This document shows positions 2,654 to 60,572 of a stretch of 64,000 nt of DNA, in pieces. The DNA comes from a phage, in the sequence record OZ335964.1; one strand, written 5' to 3'. A program made the translations under genes and the position numbers. Numbering within the stretch: the stretch's first letter is position 1; each line of letters starts with the position of its first letter. The notes beneath the pieces are model-generated. The model ran no database searches. It worked only from the letters and a program-made list of their open reading frames with translations, and was not told the origin of the DNA.

Positions 2654-3474
2654 TTAGTCACCTCACCGAAAATTGTAAATTGTCTACGATTCTCATCGCC
2701 GAAAGATTCTACTACGTCGTTTACCTTTATGCAAGTCCCGCGCGGTAAAATTACTTCACATTCGCAAGGATTCCATGCAATTGACCCAACAACAAAACCT
2801 TTATGATCTTTTACGTCAATTACCCATGATACATTACAAGAATGTTGCATCTTTCCGGTCATTGATTCATATCGATTCTCACAATAAAGGCTAGTGCTAT
2901 TTGAAAGCCAGCCTCCAAAGATGATCGGTGTCATGCTGGTCGACACAAAGTTTTTAAAGGTAAATTCCTTATCTTCAATAATACGCTCTATTGTCTGAAT
3001 GTCAAGATGTTGACCGCGATAAAGAGTACCGTTTAACTTTTCGGTTTTATCCATGACACAATCCATCAAATCGACGATCTCTGATATCTCATCGGTCATG
3101 TCTTCTTCCCCTAAGAGAGCACCATTTACCCATTCGTATTGTTCAGACACATAATCACAGATTGCATTATATTCTGCTGGGGTTATGTTGTTATGTTTGT
3201 AATGTTTGAACACATTATCTCCAAAGTCTTCAGAGTGTACTTCATACATCACATTAATGATTTTCTTGACAAATCCATAATCTTGTGTCTCGCGCTCAAG
3301 GAAGCGGATAACATTCACGTAATCATCAAAGTTAATCTGATCGCTGATCATCTCAGTGATCATGTAACCATTAATCCCCTCAATGTCATATGTTTCAATA
3401 TAATTGTCCATACGTTCCATCATTGATTCGCGTGATTCTTCCGAAAGACGAAAATCCTGTAATTTCTTGAACAT
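2650..3474 (-). CDS. ADP-ribosyltransferase-fold protein (Alt/Mod-like paralogue)
   Basis: 274 aa with R-S-E triad in order: TLYRGQ (Arg), FVSTSMT (STS), CECEVILPRG (ExE); same motif set as Alt next door. Confidence 0.55.
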   Translation of the reverse strand: MFKKLQDFRLSEESRESMMERMDNYIETYDIEGINGYMITEMISDQINFDDYVNVIRFLERETQDYGFVKKIINVMYEVHSEDFGDNVFKHYKHNNITPAEYNAICDYVSEQYEWVNGALLGEEDMTDEISEIVDLMDCVMDKTEKLNGTLYRGQHLDIQTIERIIEDKEFTFKNFVSTSMTPIIFGGWLSNSTSLYCENRYESMTGKMQHSCNVSWVIDVKDHKGFVVGSIAWNPCECEVILPRGTCIKVNDVVESFGDENRRQFTIFGEVTK

Positions 3475-5922: not shown

Positions 5923-5951
5923 ATTATAGGGGATCGATGATCCCCTGTCAA
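5923..5951 (-). promoter_or_regulatory. sigma70-type early promoter cassette
   Basis: Minus strand: TTGACA - 17 nt palindromic spacer GGGGATCATCGATCCCC - TATAAT, then conserved leader CCGAAACGAACT and RBS. Confidence 0.6.
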
Positions 5952-20967: not shown

Positions 20968-21186
20968 CTACTTTTTAATGACAAGTTCGAATTTTGCTAC
21001 CTTACGTCCTCGTTTATTGAAAGCAACCCACGGACGGTTTTCAATGTAGAACAATTCTTCGCCAATAATGAATACTGGCTGATTGTAAAGGCGACCCATC
21101 AGGTCACGCTGGCGAATGGTAGTAGATTCGTATACTTCGCCTACTACAAAGTGTTTGCTGATAGAGTCGGTGCAAGTAAATTTCAT
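20968..21186 (-). CDS. hypothetical small protein
   Basis: 72 aa; C-terminus VAKFELVIKK resembles 47700..47906 (VAKFEIIE). Confidence 0.5.
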   Translation of the reverse strand: MKFTCTDSISKHFVVGEVYESTTIRQRDLMGRLYNQPVFIIGEELFYIENRPWVAFNKRGRKVAKFELVIKK

Positions 21187-21498: not shown

Positions 21499-21528
21499 AT
21501 TATGCTATGGCAAGATCTGATTGTCAAC
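21499..21528 (-). promoter_or_regulatory. sigma70-type early promoter cassette
   Basis: TTGACA - 18 nt - CATAAT on minus strand. Confidence 0.45.
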
Positions 21529-21540
21529 ACCCAATAACAA

Positions 21541-21566
21541 AAAAGTCGCCACTATGGGCGACTTTG
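21541..21566 (-). terminator. rho-independent terminator
   Basis: GTCGCC-ACTATG-GGCGAC hairpin with minus-strand T-run. Confidence 0.6.
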
Positions 21567-21574
21567 AACAAACA

Positions 21575-22051
21575 TTAATCATGACCGTGATTTGCAATAT
21601 CCGCTCGCGTCTTATCTTTGTGATTTCCTACGTCAAAGACACGATAACCATTTTCACGCAAAACTTTAATCACTTCTGGGTTATCTTCGAATACCCCCAC
21701 TACTCCATCTTTATCAAAGGATTTAATTACCTCTAATTTGATGTGATAGTCTTTACGGGAATCGGTACGTCCTCTCATAAAGATTTTATCAAAACATACA
21801 CCGTTAGAAATTAACCAATCAATTGTTTCCATGTAAGCATGTGAACTTCGTCCGGTGAGGATGTAAATCAAATGCCCGTTGTCGGAAAGAGCATTGATAA
21901 CACGGATTACATCGTAAATGGGGGAATCTCCCCCACATGCCTTGTTATATTCGATCCATGACTCGACTTTATCAAGATTTTCGGTTGGCATCTTTGCTAG
22001 TCGATGTGTTGGATCTGTGATCGTAAAATCTAAATCGACAAAATATATCAT
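21575..22051 (-). CDS. HAD-superfamily phosphatase (possible nucleotidase)
   Basis: 158 aa; motif I FVDLDFTIT (DxDxT), ILTGR, C-terminal VFEDNPE; coupled to nrdB stop (ATGA). Confidence 0.55.
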   Translation of the reverse strand: MIYFVDLDFTITDPTHRLAKMPTENLDKVESWIEYNKACGGDSPIYDVIRVINALSDNGHLIYILTGRSSHAYMETIDWLISNGVCFDKIFMRGRTDSRKDYHIKLEVIKSFDKDGVVGVFEDNPEVIKVLRENGYRVFDVGNHKDKTRADIANHGHD

Positions 22052-23208
22052 AGATATTTCCCGAATCGGTTGTAGTCATCGTCTGTTAAATCGGTATTAA
22101 CCTGAGACACCAGATACATAATCTCTACTTCCTGCGCTGCATTCTGCACTTCGTCAGAGTTTAACCACTTACGCATCCACGGTAAAGGATGACGACGAAC
22201 ACTAAACGGGCTTTTCAGTCCGGCAGCACGCATACGGGAATCTGCCAGGTATTCTACATAGGTTTTCAGAATTTCCGGTGACAGGTTAGGAATTGCCCCC
22301 ATTGCGAATAGGTGGTCTACCCATTCTTTTTCTTGCTCGACAACATCCAGAAAGATTTTCGTTGCTTCGTCTTCAAGTTCTTCCGCAATCTGTTTCCACT
22401 CATCACCATCAGCCCCCGTTTGCCATTGACGAATAATGTATTGTGTGCCTTTTAAGTGAAGTTGTTCATCACGCGCAATAAATTTCATGATCTTCGCGTT
22501 ACCTTCCAGTAAACCACGTTCGGCAAAGCTGAAAGTACATGCAAAGGACACATAAAAACGGATTGCTTCCAAAGCATTGACGCAGTGTGCACACAGATAA
22601 ATCGAAGCCATCAGATCTCGTTTTGTATCTTCAAAAAATCTTCTTGCATCATCTAATGCTGTCGGGTCGTCTCGTTCTTCCCAATAGCGGAGATCTTCTT
22701 TTGCGTTCTCATACTTACGAATCCAATAGAGAACATCATCATAATATTGCCCGATAGATTCCGCTCGCTTCATGATAGCAGGGTTATCGATGATCTGGTC
22801 AAACTCACTAGCCGGATCAATAAAACAGTTACGCATAATGTGAGTATAACTGCGGCTATGAATCGTTTCGCTGAATGTCCATGTTTGCAACCATGTATCA
22901 AGAGTCGGATCAGATACAATTGGACCAAATGCTGCGGACGGTGCGCGACCTTGAATAGAATCAAGTAATGTCTGATACTTCAAGTTTTCGGTAAAGAAAC
23001 GCTTTTCAACGTCACCCATATTAAGATATTGAATGCGGTCAGTTGCAAGCGAGATCTCTTCTGGACGCCAGAAAAATGACAATTGCTTTTCGATCAGTTC
23101 TTCAAATACTTGATGACGCTGAATATCATAGCGAGCGATACCCAACCCACTACCCAGAAACATCGGTTCGTTCATAATATCAACATGTTCGCGGTTAAAT
23201 ACGCTCAT
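22048..23208 (-). CDS. nrdB: ribonucleotide reductase small subunit
   Basis: 386 aa (T4 NrdB 388 aa); uninterrupted, no intron; synteny with nrdA. Confidence 0.9.
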   Translation of the reverse strand: MSVFNREHVDIMNEPMFLGSGLGIARYDIQRHQVFEELIEKQLSFFWRPEEISLATDRIQYLNMGDVEKRFFTENLKYQTLLDSIQGRAPSAAFGPIVSDPTLDTWLQTWTFSETIHSRSYTHIMRNCFIDPASEFDQIIDNPAIMKRAESIGQYYDDVLYWIRKYENAKEDLRYWEERDDPTALDDARRFFEDTKRDLMASIYLCAHCVNALEAIRFYVSFACTFSFAERGLLEGNAKIMKFIARDEQLHLKGTQYIIRQWQTGADGDEWKQIAEELEDEATKIFLDVVEQEKEWVDHLFAMGAIPNLSPEILKTYVEYLADSRMRAAGLKSPFSVRRHPLPWMRKWLNSDEVQNAAQEVEIMYLVSQVNTDLTDDDYNRFGKYL

Positions 23209-23223
23209 TAATTCACCTCACTA

Positions 23224-23391
23224 TCACTTTTTAACACAAAAGAACTTAGTATTTCTGTTTATTTCGTTATCCTGTTGCAATTCCTGCACGGCTTCAAAAC
23301 AACTTTGATGTGATGAAAACTCCACGCTGGTAACAGTTCCTTTATTATATGAGCCTACGCTAACGGAAAGCAATAACCATATTGTAGCCAT
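23224..23391 (-). CDS. small ORF (55 aa), tandem paralogue 1
   Basis: Hand-translated MATIWLLLSVSVGSYNKGTVTSVEFSSHQSCFEAVQELQQDNEINRNTKFFCVKK; start overlaps upstream stop (TAATG). Confidence 0.45.
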   Translation of the reverse strand: MATIWLLLSVSVGSYNKGTVTSVEFSSHQSCFEAVQELQQDNEINRNTKFFCVKK

Positions 23392-23564
23392 TAGTTCACC
23401 TTCTGCTTTTCAACACAGTACAGATTCATAAAGCGTTTATTGTCTTCGCGGATAATCTCGCGAGCTTTAACGCAATCCTGCTTTGTTGCAAATTCAATAC
23501 TTGACATGTTTCCGTAATTATACATTGAATTGCTGATTGCAATCAATAACCATACAGTAGCCAT
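23391..23564 (-). CDS. small ORF (57 aa), tandem paralogue 2
   Basis: Hand-translated MATVWLLIAISNSMYNYGNMSSIEFATKQDCVKAREIIREDNKRFMNLYCVEKQKVN; paralogue of 23224..23391; coupled on both sides. Confidence 0.45.
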   Translation of the reverse strand: MATVWLLIAISNSMYNYGNMSSIEFATKQDCVKAREIIREDNKRFMNLYCVEKQKVN

Positions 23565-23731
23565 TATTCGACAACCTCAAAGCATTTATCATCAGGAAGA
23601 ATAGCCCATTCTACGCCGTATTCATCCTCAACGTAGTAGCAAGTCCCATCATGTCGAGCATCATATACATCACCGACAACAAAGCTATCGGCTAGTTCAA
23701 AATCTACAGCAACACATTTTAATTTGGTCAT
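23564..23731 (-). CDS. hypothetical small protein
   Basis: 55 aa from MTKLKCV with RBS GAGGA; track ORF's 21-codon extension overlaps the promoter. Confidence 0.45.
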   Translation of the reverse strand: MTKLKCVAVDFELADSFVVGDVYDARHDGTCYYVEDEYGVEWAILPDDKCFEVVE

Positions 23732-23762: not shown

Positions 23763-23791
23763 ATTATAGCGGGGATTTCTCCCCGCGTCAA
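23763..23791 (-). promoter_or_regulatory. sigma70-type early promoter cassette
   Basis: TTGACG - 17 nt palindromic spacer CGGGGAGAAATCCCCGC - TATAAT. Confidence 0.5.
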
Positions 23792-23800
23792 CACTTATTT

Positions 23801-26044
23801 TTACAGTTTGCAAGATGAACATTCGCTAGCGTCTTCCGTACCATCAGCACCATCACGCACGTTAGCGTAATACAGTGTCTTGAGGCCGTAATATTGAGCA
23901 AATAACATATCATCTAATACATCAGCAATATCGACTTTACCAGTCTTATAAGTGCTTGGATCATAGGATGTATTGGAACTAATCGCCTGGTCGACAAACT
24001 TCTGCATAATAGCTGCCAGTGTCAGATAAGGCTTGTTACCTTTCTTGATCAGTGTCCAAAGCAAGTCAATAACATCAGCATTATTCTCTACGTTCGGAAT
24101 AACCTGATTAAATTGCCCTTCTTTCGATCCTTTAACCGATACAATCCCGCGAGGCGGTTCAATACCGTTTGTGCTGTTAGACACCTGAGAAGACGACTCA
24201 CAAGGCATCAGCGCCGAAAGCGTACTGTTACGAATGCCATATTTTTTCAGGTCTTCGCGCAGTTCTTCCCAATCCATCTCATACACCGGGTCAACCAGTT
24301 CATCTACTGTCTTTTTGTACCAGTCGATAGGCAGTTCACCGCGACCATAACGTGTTTCGTGCATCAGTTCGCAAGCACCCTTCTCTTTAGCCAGTTGCAC
24401 ACTAGCCTTAATCAGAGCATATTGCAAGCGTTCAAACGTTTTATGCGTAAACTCGTTGGCGTCTTCATATGTGAAGAAATTATCCGCCAGATATGATGCA
24501 AAGTTAGTCACACCAACACCCAGAGAGCGACGTTTTTTTGCTGTCAGAGCTTGTTCTACGGGATAATCCTGGTAATCTAACAAGTTGTCAAGTGCACGCA
24601 CCATAACCATAGCAATGCGTTCTACTTCTTCCATGTTTTCGATATCGAAATTACCTAAAACATATGCTGCCAAAGTACATAGGCTGATCTCTGAATCATC
24701 ACGCCCCATTGGTTTAGTAGGCAGTGCAATTTCGCAACACAGGTTAGATTGTTTAATCGGTGCTACATTGCGAATAAACGCCCCGTGATTGTTCATGTTG
24801 TCTGTGAACGCTGGATAGATTCGACCAGTGTTAAAACGTTCAATTGCCACCGCTAAAAACAGGTCTTCGGCTTTAACACGAGTTTTACGAACACTCGGAT
24901 CTTTTTCCAGTTTTTCGTAAAGCTGGCGGAAACCTTCCTCATCTCGGAAGTACAGATCCCACAACAAGCCACCTGCAACATCTGGACTAAACAGAGTAAT
25001 GTAATCCCGTTTAAGGAATCGCTCTACCATCAGGTTATTAATCTGTACGCCGTAATCAAGATGGCGAATGCGGTTATCTTCTACCCCTTTGTTGTTCTTC
25101 AACACAATAAGACTTTCAAACTCTAAATGCCACATTGGGTAATAGAGAGTCGCCGCCCCGCCACGAATACCGCCTTGTGAGCATGACTTAACGGCAGTCT
25201 GAAAATGTTTCCAGAATGGGATAACGCCAGTATGACGAACTTCACCATGCCCGATCTTAGATCCTTCCGCGCGAATCATGCCAGCGTTGATACCGATGCC
25301 AGCACGCTTACTAATATACTTGATGATTGCATTTGCTGTTTCGTTGATGCCCTGCAATGAGTCATCAGATTCGATCACCACACACGAACTAAATTGGCGT
25401 GTTGGAGTACGCACACCAGCCATAATCGGAGTAGGAAGAGAAATTTGCTTATTAGCAACAGCATTATAAAAATCAATCACATGTTCAAGTCGATTTTCTG
25501 TCTCTTCTTGATGTAAACACATACCGATCAGCATATACGCAAATTGCGGTGTTTCGATGATTTTCTTAGTGCTGCGATCCTGAACAAGATATTTCTCTTT
25601 TAATTGCATCGCACCAGCATAGGTCATTTTAAAATCAAGTTTATGATCGATGAATTTCTCCAGATATTCCACTTCTTCACGGGAATACTTTTGCAGAATT
25701 TCGCGATCATATTTTCCGGTTGCAATATTACGCTCAATATGGCTGTAAAAATCAATCGGTTGGAATTGACCGTATACTGATTTACGAAGCGCGAACATTG
25801 CAAGGTTACTTGCTACATATTGATAATCAGGTGTTTCTACAGTAATGTTGTCTGCGGCGACCTTAATCAATACTTTCTGGATATCGTTGGTAGACATACC
25901 TTCTGTCAGAAGTGGTTCAACCATATCAAACAATTCATATGGATCAACGTTATGACCTTCGGCTGCCGCTTCCAGAATTTTCATTACTTTTTCTTTTTCA
26001 AACGGAACAGTCAGACCGGAAGACTTAACAACATTTTTAATCAT
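23801..26044 (-). CDS. nrdA: ribonucleotide reductase large subunit
   Basis: 747 aa (T4 NrdA 754 aa); ATP-cone N-terminus, class I RNR catalytic core. Confidence 0.9.
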   Translation of the reverse strand: MIKNVVKSSGLTVPFEKEKVMKILEAAAEGHNVDPYELFDMVEPLLTEGMSTNDIQKVLIKVAADNITVETPDYQYVASNLAMFALRKSVYGQFQPIDFYSHIERNIATGKYDREILQKYSREEVEYLEKFIDHKLDFKMTYAGAMQLKEKYLVQDRSTKKIIETPQFAYMLIGMCLHQEETENRLEHVIDFYNAVANKQISLPTPIMAGVRTPTRQFSSCVVIESDDSLQGINETANAIIKYISKRAGIGINAGMIRAEGSKIGHGEVRHTGVIPFWKHFQTAVKSCSQGGIRGGAATLYYPMWHLEFESLIVLKNNKGVEDNRIRHLDYGVQINNLMVERFLKRDYITLFSPDVAGGLLWDLYFRDEEGFRQLYEKLEKDPSVRKTRVKAEDLFLAVAIERFNTGRIYPAFTDNMNNHGAFIRNVAPIKQSNLCCEIALPTKPMGRDDSEISLCTLAAYVLGNFDIENMEEVERIAMVMVRALDNLLDYQDYPVEQALTAKKRRSLGVGVTNFASYLADNFFTYEDANEFTHKTFERLQYALIKASVQLAKEKGACELMHETRYGRGELPIDWYKKTVDELVDPVYEMDWEELREDLKKYGIRNSTLSALMPCESSSQVSNSTNGIEPPRGIVSVKGSKEGQFNQVIPNVENNADVIDLLWTLIKKGNKPYLTLAAIMQKFVDQAISSNTSYDPSTYKTGKVDIADVLDDMLFAQYYGLKTLYYANVRDGADGTEDASECSSCKL

Positions 26045-26087: not shown

Positions 26088-26107
26088 TATTGGGGGCTTT
26101 CGCCCCC
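26088..26107 (-). other. GNRA-type stem-loop (possible terminator or RNA stability element)
   Basis: GGGGGC-TTTC-GCCCCC; minus-strand reading GGGGGCGAAAGCCCCC is identical to the hairpin 3' of gene 34; no clear minus-strand T-run. Confidence 0.35.
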
Positions 26108-26113
26108 CTTTGT

Positions 26114-27346
26114 TTATACTGCCATTTGAGCGGTGATTGCTGGATGGCTTTGATAGTTGTGAATTTTAAAGTCTTTCGGAGTCTTTGTCAATACCTCATC
26201 TAATGATTTAAATTCCGGCAACTCAATTGTTGGTTTATCAAACGGAACACGGCTTAACTGTTCCATAACTTGATCAAAATGGTTTTTGTAAATGTGAGTA
26301 TCTCCACCAGAGAAAATCAGTTCTCCTACCTCAAGATCACACATTTTCGCTATGATGTGAGTTAACAGCGCATAGCTGGCAACATTAAAGGGCAAGCCCA
26401 AAAAGCTGTCTACGCTTCGCTGAAACCACATACAAGACAGTTTACCTTCATTGACATAGAATTGTACGAACGGATGACATACACCCAATACAGCATTATG
26501 TGTTCCTTGTACGTTCCATGAGTCAATGATGATACGTCGATCCGTTGGATTGTTTTTAATTTGTTCAATCACGTTTTGTAACTGGTCTTCCCAAATCTTC
26601 GGGCGATAGACATATTCTTCATCGTCTTTAGTGCTCGATGTGTCTACGTCCATACTAGCAAAGATCGTGGTATCTGGCGCTAAAATATCCCCGCCCAGAT
26701 AATCACTATCAAGCAGATAACCGAAATAACCATCATCTACCCATTCCTGGAATCCCCACAAGCAATATGCATCATTAACAAAATTAGATTGAGTCTTCCA
26801 GTGGTCTGCTACTAAGAATAGATTATATTCAGAATCAAACTCTTCATAACGCATACCACGCCAGATGGCACATAAACGGTCTTCTGTTTCATTGGTTGGC
26901 GTAAAGTCTTCTACCCACGGGTGCTTAAATGTATGTGTATATTTGCTCTTAACGCGCTTAATTTTGATTTCACCGTGTGGATGAATCGGTTTGCGTCGCC
27001 AAGCCATACCATACATATTGCCGACATTATAACCATTGAATCGCAAAGGATTCTTTTCTTTCATATCAAGACAGTTGCCGCGCCAAATGTCGAAGGCTTC
27101 TTCGTCAAACTTACCGCGTGTAATTTCCTGTAAGCGACGGCGGTCAAGTGATCCCTCCATAAACCATAGCAACTCGCCAATTACAGAGGCTGTAGCCATC
27201 TTTTTAGTGGTCAGTAAGGGGAAACCCTTGCTTAAATCGATTCGCATCTCTGCGCCGAATTTAGAGAGCGTACCTACCCCCGTGCGGTCTTCACGAGGCC
27301 AGCCATTATCAAGAACATCACGCAACAGTTTCAAATATTCTTTCAT
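26114..27346 (-). CDS. td: thymidylate synthase with large in-frame insertion
   Basis: 410 aa; DRTGVGT, RRIIIDSWN, CHPFVQFYV and C-terminal MAV match ThyA, but ~120 extra residues lie between the MYGMAWRR and IWEDQLQ blocks. Confidence 0.8.
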   Translation of the reverse strand: MKEYLKLLRDVLDNGWPREDRTGVGTLSKFGAEMRIDLSKGFPLLTTKKMATASVIGELLWFMEGSLDRRRLQEITRGKFDEEAFDIWRGNCLDMKEKNPLRFNGYNVGNMYGMAWRRKPIHPHGEIKIKRVKSKYTHTFKHPWVEDFTPTNETEDRLCAIWRGMRYEEFDSEYNLFLVADHWKTQSNFVNDAYCLWGFQEWVDDGYFGYLLDSDYLGGDILAPDTTIFASMDVDTSSTKDDEEYVYRPKIWEDQLQNVIEQIKNNPTDRRIIIDSWNVQGTHNAVLGVCHPFVQFYVNEGKLSCMWFQRSVDSFLGLPFNVASYALLTHIIAKMCDLEVGELIFSGGDTHIYKNHFDQVMEQLSRVPFDKPTIELPEFKSLDEVLTKTPKDFKIHNYQSHPAITAQMAV

Positions 27347-59180: not shown

Positions 59181-60572
59181 TCAAATATAGTCTACTCGAT
59201 ACCGCGCACGGGTAACACCCACATATAATAACTGCATTGCCAATTCAAAGTCAACATTGTCTGTACACATGCAAGGAGTATACAGGAACACGCGGTCTAC
59301 GCTTATCCCTTGTGACTTATGAATGGTGCAAGCTGGTAATGCTTTTACATTCAAGAACATACGTTTCATCGTCCAGAAGGAATCCCAATCTGGTTTAAAT
59401 TTTGGATTCTCTTTCTTCATTTCGCGATATTGTCCGGCGACCGTATTCAGATAGATAGAGAAAATGTTCTTCTGACGTTGTTCTGTCAGAATGTTGATTT
59501 CTACTAAATCCGGTTTATCTGTAGTGATTCCGACTGCATCTAAACCGACTTTCTGATTTAGGATTTCTTTGTCTTCGTCATCATCGACGCTTTCCACTTT
59601 CAGAGTATAGCCTAAAACTGGTTGCGGATCTACCCCTGTGCAACGTAATGTAAATTCGCGCGGGATAACCTCTTTAACTCGGATCATCTCACCATTGTTA
59701 AAAATAACATTGGGAATCTTCTTCCCGCGTTCATCTCGCAGATATTCGATCAACGGTTCCTGAGTAACCAGAATTTCATCTACAATCACTGGTTCATCGG
59801 TGTTATAAACGCGCTTACGCACAATTTCATTGAGTTTTTCGACGCTCTTGTTAGTGTAGGCCAGAATACGGTTTTCCAACAAGTCTTCCGGCGTTTTAAC
59901 AGCTTCAAAATAATGTTTCATGAACTCTGGCAGCGTTGAGCTATGGAATACACCCTCGTTGTCGCACTGCTTTTCGAATACCCATTTACCGTTACGGACA
60001 GCAGTCGCCACATCAATTATTGGCGCATTAGATCGTTTAATCTCTGTAAGTTCTACATTCTGGAACCTTTCATCTGTGAAGAAAGGAGAGATCGACGTTG
60101 CACCGCTCGGATCAACTGGTCGTAACTGGTACAGATCACCCACGGCAATAATAACAATTCGACCGTTGATACTCTTCATGAGAATATCAAATAGTTTCTT
60201 ATCGACCATACTCGCTTCATCAACAATGATGATCTGAACATCATCTAGCTTAGGAGTATCTTTTTGTTCAAATACTTGAGTATCTTCATAGTTGGTTGGA
60301 TTTAGTCGCAGTAGTGCATGTAAAGTAAATGCTTGACGACCTACCGCCTTACTCAAAACTTTTTTAGCCTGGTGGGTAGGCGTTGCCAAAACCACACCAG
60401 TTACACCACGGCGGACCATTTCCTGGACAATGAATTTCATCATTGCGGTTTTACCAGTACCCGCCGCACCACGGACAGTTGTATGCTTCTTTTGTTCAAT
60501 GCGTTTCATTAGAACATCAAAAGCATGTTTTTGTCCGTCTGTCAACATATCGAAAGTTAATACTCTGCTCAT
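59181..60572 (-). CDS. dda: Dda DNA helicase (SF1B)
   Basis: 463 aa; FDMLTDGQKHAF, Walker A GAAGTGKT, ATPTHQAKKVLSK, IIIVDEASM match T4 Dda. Confidence 0.85.
   Translation of the reverse strand: MSRVLTFDMLTDGQKHAFDVLMKRIEQKKHTTVRGAAGTGKTAMMKFIVQEMVRRGVTGVVLATPTHQAKKVLSKAVGRQAFTLHALLRLNPTNYEDTQVFEQKDTPKLDDVQIIIVDEASMVDKKLFDILMKSINGRIVIIAVGDLYQLRPVDPSGATSISPFFTDERFQNVELTEIKRSNAPIIDVATAVRNGKWVFEKQCDNEGVFHSSTLPEFMKHYFEAVKTPEDLLENRILAYTNKSVEKLNEIVRKRVYNTDEPVIVDEILVTQEPLIEYLRDERGKKIPNVIFNNGEMIRVKEVIPREFTLRCTGVDPQPVLGYTLKVESVDDDEDKEILNQKVGLDAVGITTDKPDLVEINILTEQRQKNIFSIYLNTVAGQYREMKKENPKFKPDWDSFWTMKRMFLNVKALPACTIHKSQGISVDRVFLYTPCMCTDNVDFELAMQLLYVGVTRARYRVDYI

Follow-up and report, generated by a model that had tools for sequence, protein, structure and literature searches.

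Diverged PHROG 5579 mini-protein genes in a shuffled cassette between nrdA and nrdB of a Krischvirus

Results

The DNA analyzed here, referred to as the window, is a stretch of 64,000 nucleotides (nt) from the phage sequence record OZ335964.1. Between nrdA and nrdB, on the minus strand, it carries three small open reading frames (ORFs): gene3 (23564-23731, 55 amino acids [aa], MTKLKCV..., ATG at 23731), w57 (23391-23564, 57 aa, MATVWLLIAIS...) and w55 (23224-23391, 55 aa, MATIWLLLSVS...). An earlier note, made from the sequence alone, described w55 and w57 as paralogues that share the motifs S-x-E-F, Q-x-C and C-V-x-K and are linked to each other and to the third small gene by TAATG. These features held up. 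The 55- and 57-aa ORFs are present in the ORF list and in the sequence, the motifs were found in both, and the gene3/w57 and w57/w55 junctions both read TAATG, with stop and start overlapping by one base. The amino acid sequences of w55 and w57 share 40% identity end to end (BLASTP expectation value [E] 7e-17 in a single comparison), a likeness far beyond what chance would give. Shine-Dalgarno sequences precede gene3 (GAGG), w57 (GAGG), w55 (AAGGTGA) and nrdB (GAGGTGA). The nrdB gene (22048-23208, minus strand, 386 aa) begins 15 nt past the w55 stop, and nrdA (23801-26044, minus strand, 747 aa), the core gene flanking the cluster upstream, is separated from gene3 by a 69-nt intergenic spacer. 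The NrdA and NrdB identities are backed by 95-99.5% DNA identity to annotated Krischvirus genomes. A 1.2-kb region of the locus is 99.5% identical to Escherichia phage UPWr_E1 and 95-97% identical to RB49, Phi1, ECD7 and about 50 further Krischvirus genomes, and on this basis the window is from a Krischvirus (RB49-like) phage. A scan of the region with Rfam matched no RNA family.

All three small genes are annotated in RB49 as 'hypothetical protein' (RB49p233 for gene3, RB49p232 for w57 and RB49p231 for w55), and UPWr_E1 gives them the same hypothetical annotation. The w55 and w57 products share 89-100% identity with proteins listed as hypothetical in RB49, Phi1, UPWr_E1 and others, which are encoded at the same position and with the same TAATG packing; the RB49 record and those of more than 50 relatives annotate w57. 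They are not new genes, having been catalogued as hypothetical since the RB49 genome record. The earlier note had made its proposal depend on conservation of the frames in related phages. The frames are kept in more than 50 of them, and substitutions fall mostly at third codon positions. A selection analysis with 11-12 Krischvirus sequences per gene gave ratios of nonsynonymous to synonymous substitution rates (dN/dS) of 0.020 for w57 (2/0/12 variable sites by codon position), 0.26 for w55 (5/4/12), 0.12 for gene3 (4/2/11), 0.031 for nrdB (6/4/57) and 0.013 for the 3′ end of nrdA (5/2/62). No frameshifts or stop codons were found in w55 or w57 across the loci examined. By these sequence measures both genes are under purifying selection, and they are of the translated type and selectively maintained.

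Both products matched PHROG 5579 over all 52 positions of the family profile (w55: residues 2-55 on positions 1-52, E 7.6e-25; w57: residues 2-53 on positions 1-52, E 6.8e-24), and gene3 was assigned to PHROG 16302. In the kaaroe record the PHROG 5579 equivalent carries the pVOG identifier VOG8694. Scans of w55, w57 and gene3 against Pfam, NCBIfam and PADLOC produced no significant match, the only signal being a sub-threshold DUF7244 match for gene3, and a profile search of the PDB sequences gave no match. In a tblastn search of 50,697 phage records the family was found in Krischvirus, with two copies per genome, and as single copies with 31-44% identity in unrelated phages: the Drexlerviridae (T1-like) JeanPiccard, Henu7 and Motto, the jumbo Erwinia phage Hallingskeid, and Vibrio phages PS15B. 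The Henu7 homologue (MN019128.1; 51 aa, MISAWILVSISYYGG...CVKK; about 3001-3156 of locus L004) is unannotated in GenBank and overlaps the end of gp30. When 1.84 billion representative proteins were searched with the family profile, 67 matched at E ≤1e-3, nearly all of them 50-65 aa long. The long eukaryotic multi-repeat matches (P0010, P0011 and P0063) were discarded as low-complexity or RRM-repeat proteins and not homologues; there is a local strand-helix resemblance to the RRM, but the aromatic RNA-binding positions are absent, and a relation was rejected. A single-protein scan of viral contigs returned only two near-identical loci. Within the window, a tblastn match at 59930-60013 was considered as a third paralogue, but it falls within the ORF of a Dda-type helicase (463 aa) and was dismissed as spurious. 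The neighbours of the distant members are diverse (phosphatase, RNase T, rIIB and sugar-modification genes), and their contexts are phage-like, on the same strand and tightly packed, the gene start often overlapping the upstream stop. As sampled by these searches, the family is one of phage-specific mini-proteins of about 55 aa.

The earlier note regarded the pair as a tandem duplication. The paralogy is real, but it does not reflect a recent event. The w55 sequence is 49-51% identical to the singletons P0007 (49%) and P0008, and w57 is 50% identical to P0006, versus 40% between w55 and w57. Since each copy is nearer a singleton elsewhere than its own neighbour, they are old paralogues or separate acquisitions. 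P0007 is encoded directly upstream of nrdB in a Krischvirus-like metagenomic contig (ERZ27254724 k141_40510, locus L031) whose NrdB is 92% identical to that of the window. The core gene has thus changed far more slowly than the small gene in the slot, which has either diverged or been exchanged.

An alignment of 64 family members, with a mean column identity of 25%, showed that C31 and C52 are invariant and that conservation reaches at least 90% at W5, L7 and F25; the number of cysteines is exactly two in 63 of these members. The AlphaFold2 model of w55 based on a 64-sequence alignment had a mean predicted local distance difference test score of 93.8, with an average of 91 over the first ten residues, and a predicted template modelling score of 0.74. 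Its elements are a strand at residues 5-11, a strand at 20-25, a helix at 28-39, a short helix at 42-47 and a strand at 48-54, so that each paralogue is predicted to be a strand-strand-helix-strand mini-domain. A Foldseek search against viral models matched only uncharacterised small phage proteins.

The hydrophobic N-terminus that the earlier note pointed out (IWLLLSV) is present, but the model predicts with high confidence that it is a β-strand of the sheet, unlike a transmembrane helix or a Sec signal. Across the family the maximum Kyte-Doolittle hydropathy over 19 residues has a median of 0.95 and is ≥1.6 in a single member of the 64. The median hydrophobic run is 10 residues long, and Lys or Arg is found ahead of it in only 9 of 64. 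Family-wide, therefore, the hydropathy, run length and n-region charge of the 64 members are not those of a membrane-spanning segment or a Sec signal peptide, and the conservation of W5 and L7 agrees with this conclusion. Judging from the periodicity of the sequence, C31, A34 and L38 would share one face of the helix, and C52 would alternate with V53 on the last strand. The model predicts C31 in the first turn of the helix and C52 on the last strand, a placement that probably brings the two cysteines opposite one another within the core between helix and sheet. L6, L8 and V53 would form another hydrophobic face, left uncovered, which suggests oligomerisation or target binding. The proteins do not have the features of thioredoxins, glutaredoxins or NrdH redoxins: the cysteines are 21 residues apart, there is no CxxC, no Pfam match was obtained, and the predicted w55 fold of three strands and one main helix is unlike the thioredoxin fold. 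The conserved [IV]-E-F was also considered as a site of capsid-targeting or prohead-protease cleavage of the kind known from T4, a possibility rejected by inspection because the hydrophobic residue is at P2 instead of P3 and the family is also found in T1-like phages.

The spacer between nrdA and gene3 reads TAAAAATAAGTG-TTGACG-CGGGGAGAAATCCCCGC-TATAAT. It contains a promoter-early stem-loop (PeSL) element consisting of a predicted sigma-70-type early promoter, TTGACG-17 nt-TATAAT (23763-23791, minus strand; promoter scan 11/12), whose own spacer is filled by a 7-bp G/C stem-loop, GCGGGGA GAAA TCCCCGC (23769-23786, minus strand). The stem-loop RNA folds at -21 kcal/mol (z -4.9), and none of 200 shuffled sequences folded as well. 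Promoter and stem-loop are invariant in six aligned Krischviruses, and the GEC-3S record annotates a promoter at the same position. Following the PeSL, the minus strand carries gene3, w57, w55, nrdB and a gene for a HAD-family 3′-phosphatase (PNKP phosphatase domain; 21575-22051, 158 aa; Pfam HAD_PNKP, E 8.5e-13). The next promoter/terminator pair is found after the phosphatase gene, at about 21500-21565, and includes an intrinsic-terminator-like hairpin with a T-run (21542-21565, minus strand) that is the likely end of the unit started at the PeSL. Since there is no second PeSL before nrdB, this gene would be fed by the cassette promoter. The PeSL and the hairpin together point to a likely transcription unit gene3-w57-w55-nrdB-phosphatase, expressed early. 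Three more consensus promoters (TTGACA...TATAAT or TACAAT) start their -35 boxes at 5951, 8368 and 12164 on the minus strand of the window. Their spacers are GGGGATC...GATCCCC palindromes, and they are further PeSL-type elements.

The locus was surveyed in 59 Krischvirus records. The full cassette was found in 53, w57 was missing from two (FL20 and G37-3), and in four records, representing three phages, a homing endonuclease was found in place of w57 and w55. Neither paralogue is present in the phages JSE, FL15 and AV108; in JSE the place is taken by a homing endonuclease gene of 648 nt. All three retain nrdA, and retention of nrdB was shown for JSE. These natural absences indicate that the w55/w57 pair is dispensable for growth and is not needed by NrdA/NrdB. 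The loss of w57 can be traced to a 35-nt direct repeat that covers the 5′ end of w55 (23359-23393) and recurs at the 5′ end of w57 (23532-23566) with 80% identity and a spacing of 173 nt. The junctions in FL20 and G37-3 showed a deletion, produced when the two repeats recombined, that leaves a chimeric MATV...w55 gene. Other insertions adjoin the small genes. G5211, G37-3 and phiS carry an HNH or homing endonuclease gene in the gap from w55 to nrdB, and Delraymugoa, Aragogtheria and KMB43 a DNA methyltransferase beside the cassette. As in T4, the gap between nrdA and nrdB serves as a general slot for insertions.

The first gene of the cluster, gene3, is predicted to encode a five-stranded, SH3-like small β-barrel. 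It is inactivated in at least eight Krischvirus records (loci L009, L011, L016-L018, L026, L027 and L029) through four different mutations: a GAA-to-TAG stop at codon 12 (G37-3 and ELT3), a T inserted in a T-run (kaaroe, FL04 and FL38), a 2-nt CT deletion (FL20 and FL37) and loss of an A from an A-run (pEJ01). In GEC-3S, gene3 contains an in-frame duplication of 21 nt. Of the eight phages with a broken gene3, six were isolated on E. coli K-12 MG1655. The changes in homopolymers could be sequencing errors, and the Whisky record likewise has indels in nrdA and nrdB; errors are less likely to account for the stop codon and the CT deletion. Possible reasons for gene3 loss are counter-selection on K-12 or simple dispensability. 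A link to the loss of w57, suggested by the presence of both in FL20 and G37-3, was rejected because gene3 is broken despite an intact w57 in kaaroe, FL04, FL37, FL38, ELT3 and pEJ01.

The order of genes on the minus strand is td, nrdA, gene3, w57, w55, nrdB and HAD phosphatase. The thymidylate synthase ORF, td (26114-27346, minus strand, 410 aa), has no intron, unlike T4 td. Its Pfam domain was matched in two stretches, of which the C-terminal one (residues 254-410) begins at profile position 110, so that about 140 residues without a Pfam match are apparently inserted in the middle of the protein. A G/C hairpin (26092-26107, minus strand, GGGGGCGAAAGCCCCC) sits between the stop of td and the start of nrdA and follows, on the downstream side, a TTGACA-17-TAAAAT promoter (26191-26163), an arrangement that parallels the element preceding gene3. 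A 72-aa ORF at 20968-21186 (MKFTCTDSISKHFVVGEVYE...) showed weak similarity to gene3 around 'FVVG-x-Y' (tblastn E 0.09) and no Pfam match; it may be a distant paralogue of the small β-barrel type. The HAD 3′-phosphatase of the window is 39-43% identical to Henu7 gp30 and Motto_69 (L004 2471-3153 and L006 1971-2650), each of which is encoded directly upstream of, and overlapping, the single PHROG 5579 homologue of its phage. Other family contexts are without a phosphatase link, and the pairing may be a loose conserved linkage or a coincidence.

Discussion

The best overall explanation of these observations, which we regard as somewhat better supported than its negation, is that w55 and w57 are diverged copies of PHROG 5579 in a dispensable early cassette headed by a PeSL, with binding of a host target as the proposed function. 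The cassette is accessory, probably co-transcribed with nrdB and the HAD phosphatase gene, and shuffled among relatives. A more specific proposal, which we put forward tentatively and with appreciably less than even confidence, is that the two products are cytoplasmic early proteins that pair and bind a host protein and do not serve ribonucleotide reductase. According to this proposal, w55 and w57 would associate through the conserved hydrophobic sheet face that a single helix cannot cover. They would form homodimers and possibly a w55/w57 heterodimer whose partners are made in matched amounts through TAATG coupling, and the two cysteines would act as a staple between the helix and the last strand. 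The partner bound would be a host protein, and the outcome host takeover or counter-defence, as with other small non-essential early phage proteins. A host target is favoured by the likely early expression, small size, phage restriction, rapid exchange of the slot and predicted exposed hydrophobic face, and by the combination of dispensability with purifying selection.

Several points weigh against this proposal. The dimerisation and the cysteine geometry were deduced from secondary structure and the periodicity of the sequence. A buried pair of invariant cysteines would more usually be expected in a protein that is exported and disulfide-bonded than in one that stays in the cytoplasm. The retention of one copy in FL20 and G37-3 means that a heterodimer cannot be obligatory. 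Neither experiment nor database annotation provides a function for w55 or w57, and literature searches on the locus tags, the family identifiers and Krischvirus expression found nothing. Finally, the best PDB fold match of the model was the periplasmic domain of MzrA (PDB 4pwu), although w55 and w57 have neither the sequence profile of the MzrA family nor the transmembrane helix that precedes the domain at its N-terminus.

The cysteines and the MzrA match raise the main alternative, that w55 and w57 are envelope proteins in which the N-terminus acts as an unconventional export signal or membrane anchor and the cysteines form a periplasmic disulfide made by DsbA. Such proteins could modulate an envelope component, for instance in superinfection exclusion or as MzrA-like modulators of a sensor kinase. 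This possibility explains the invariant cysteine pair better than a cytoplasmic location does, but it conflicts with the N-terminal features and with the AlphaFold model, and we consider it unlikely.

Slightly more speculative, and in our opinion improbable, is the possibility that w55 and w57 are the two halves of one functional unit. Each three-stranded, one-helix half-domain could not bury its central hydrophobic strand alone, TAATG coupling would deliver equal amounts for a heterodimer, and the four cysteines would act as a switch that depends on redox state or on metal. The target would be a host factor, for example a defence system, which the complex would neutralise. The pair would then represent a ferredoxin-like double-half fold at a stage when its two genes are still unfused, and the counter-defence proteins of phages would gain a new family.

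A role as accessories of ribonucleotide reductase, with the cysteine pair serving as a small thiol redox relay or the proteins as assembly helpers for NrdA/NrdB, is very unlikely. Such a role would account for the genes lying between nrdA and nrdB and for the likely transcription unit shared with nrdB, a w55-type gene again directly precedes nrdB in the Krischvirus-like metagenomic contig, and one of the cysteines is in the first turn of a helix. Nonetheless, the family is found in T1-like, jumbo, Vibrio and other phages without ribonucleotide reductase genes nearby, and JSE, FL15 and AV108 keep nrdA (and JSE demonstrably nrdB) with neither paralogue. Moreover, the proteins have no CxxC motif and no thioredoxin or glutaredoxin match, T4 has unrelated genes in the same position, and the slot also takes a methyltransferase and homing endonucleases. 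That the ORFs are untranslated, as chance frames or decayed remnants in an intergenic spacer, is effectively excluded: direct expression data were not found in the literature and some relatives are without the genes, but purifying selection on w57 is as strong as that on nrdB, homologues are found across distant phage groups, the fold is predicted with confidence, Shine-Dalgarno sequences are present, and real decay at this locus yields frameshifts and stops, as in gene3, which w55 and w57 do not have.

Diverged PHROG 5579 copies in a PeSL cassette are a textbook case of the small exchangeable early genes that T4-type phages carry in slots between core genes. The gene catalogue is unchanged, as these are annotated genes of a known family in a known type of mobile early-gene cassette. 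What is gained is a sharper description of PHROG 5579, with a confident predicted fold of 55 residues, an invariant cysteine pair and a conserved tryptophan, in a family that spans T4-like, T1-like, jumbo and Vibrio phages and is represented here by two copies predicted to be co-translated. If the family consists of host-takeover or counter-defence factors, many phage genomes would gain an annotation, and the natural Krischvirus variants with both, one or no copies would be ready-made genetic controls.

The earlier note had set the locus against that of T4, placing an intron and a homing endonuclease in the latter and small coupled proteins here. In T4, mobE and nrdB.1 do lie between nrdA and nrdB, but the intron, which carries I-TevIII, is inside nrdB. 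The contrast is also blurred in that several Krischviruses carry an HNH or homing endonuclease gene beside the small genes or in place of them. The homology to T4 nrdA.1 and nrdA.2 that was suggested for follow-up was not borne out, as BLASTP of the small proteins against nrdA.1, nrdA.2 and nrdB.1 gave no match better than E 0.24 in this three-sequence search; nor are nrdA.1 and nrdA.2 genes of the same locus, since they sit between td and nrdA. The two systems are alike in having small or mobile non-core genes around the nrd genes, in some Krischviruses with HNH or homing endonucleases, whereas T4 nrdA.1, nrdA.2, nrdB.1 and mobE differ from the genes of the window in showing no sequence similarity and in their lengths and predicted folds.

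A second comparison, for gene3 alone, is with Gp54 of phage Bas11 (PDB 9axb), a small protein that is non-essential and acts as a trigger of CapRel-SJ46 (PMC11578894). The Gp54 barrel has six strands, against five in the model of gene3, and a sequence relationship between the two was not detectable. As for PHROG 5579 itself, w55 and w57 belong to the same family without difference from it, and it has no assigned function.

A further parallel is with the PeSLs of RB49 and phi1, elements that accompany small, non-essential genes and bring about the shuffling of these genes (Arbiol et al. 2010, PMC2839356). By the published description, a PeSL combines an early promoter of sigma-70 consensus, placed intergenically ahead of a small gene, with a stable stem-loop (typically GGGG...CCCC) that lies inside the promoter or beside it. 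The element preceding gene3 has both, and its stem-loop position corresponds to the commonest subclass, 'between -35 and -10'. As in the published elements, an upstream stop codon in an AT-rich stretch comes before it and a Shine-Dalgarno sequence and start codon come after. The nrdA/nrdB locus is not mentioned in the passages of the paper that were consulted. The cassettes described there differ from the present one in two respects: they are located in one of the large hyperplastic regions, whereas this one lies between two core genes, and PeSLs on both sides would permit excision as a mini-circle, whereas here w55 and nrdB are only 15 nt apart, with a Shine-Dalgarno sequence in the gap. Another property of the PeSL cassettes, that the associated small genes are inserted, deleted or replaced among close relatives, is found again between nrdA and nrdB of the Krischviruses.
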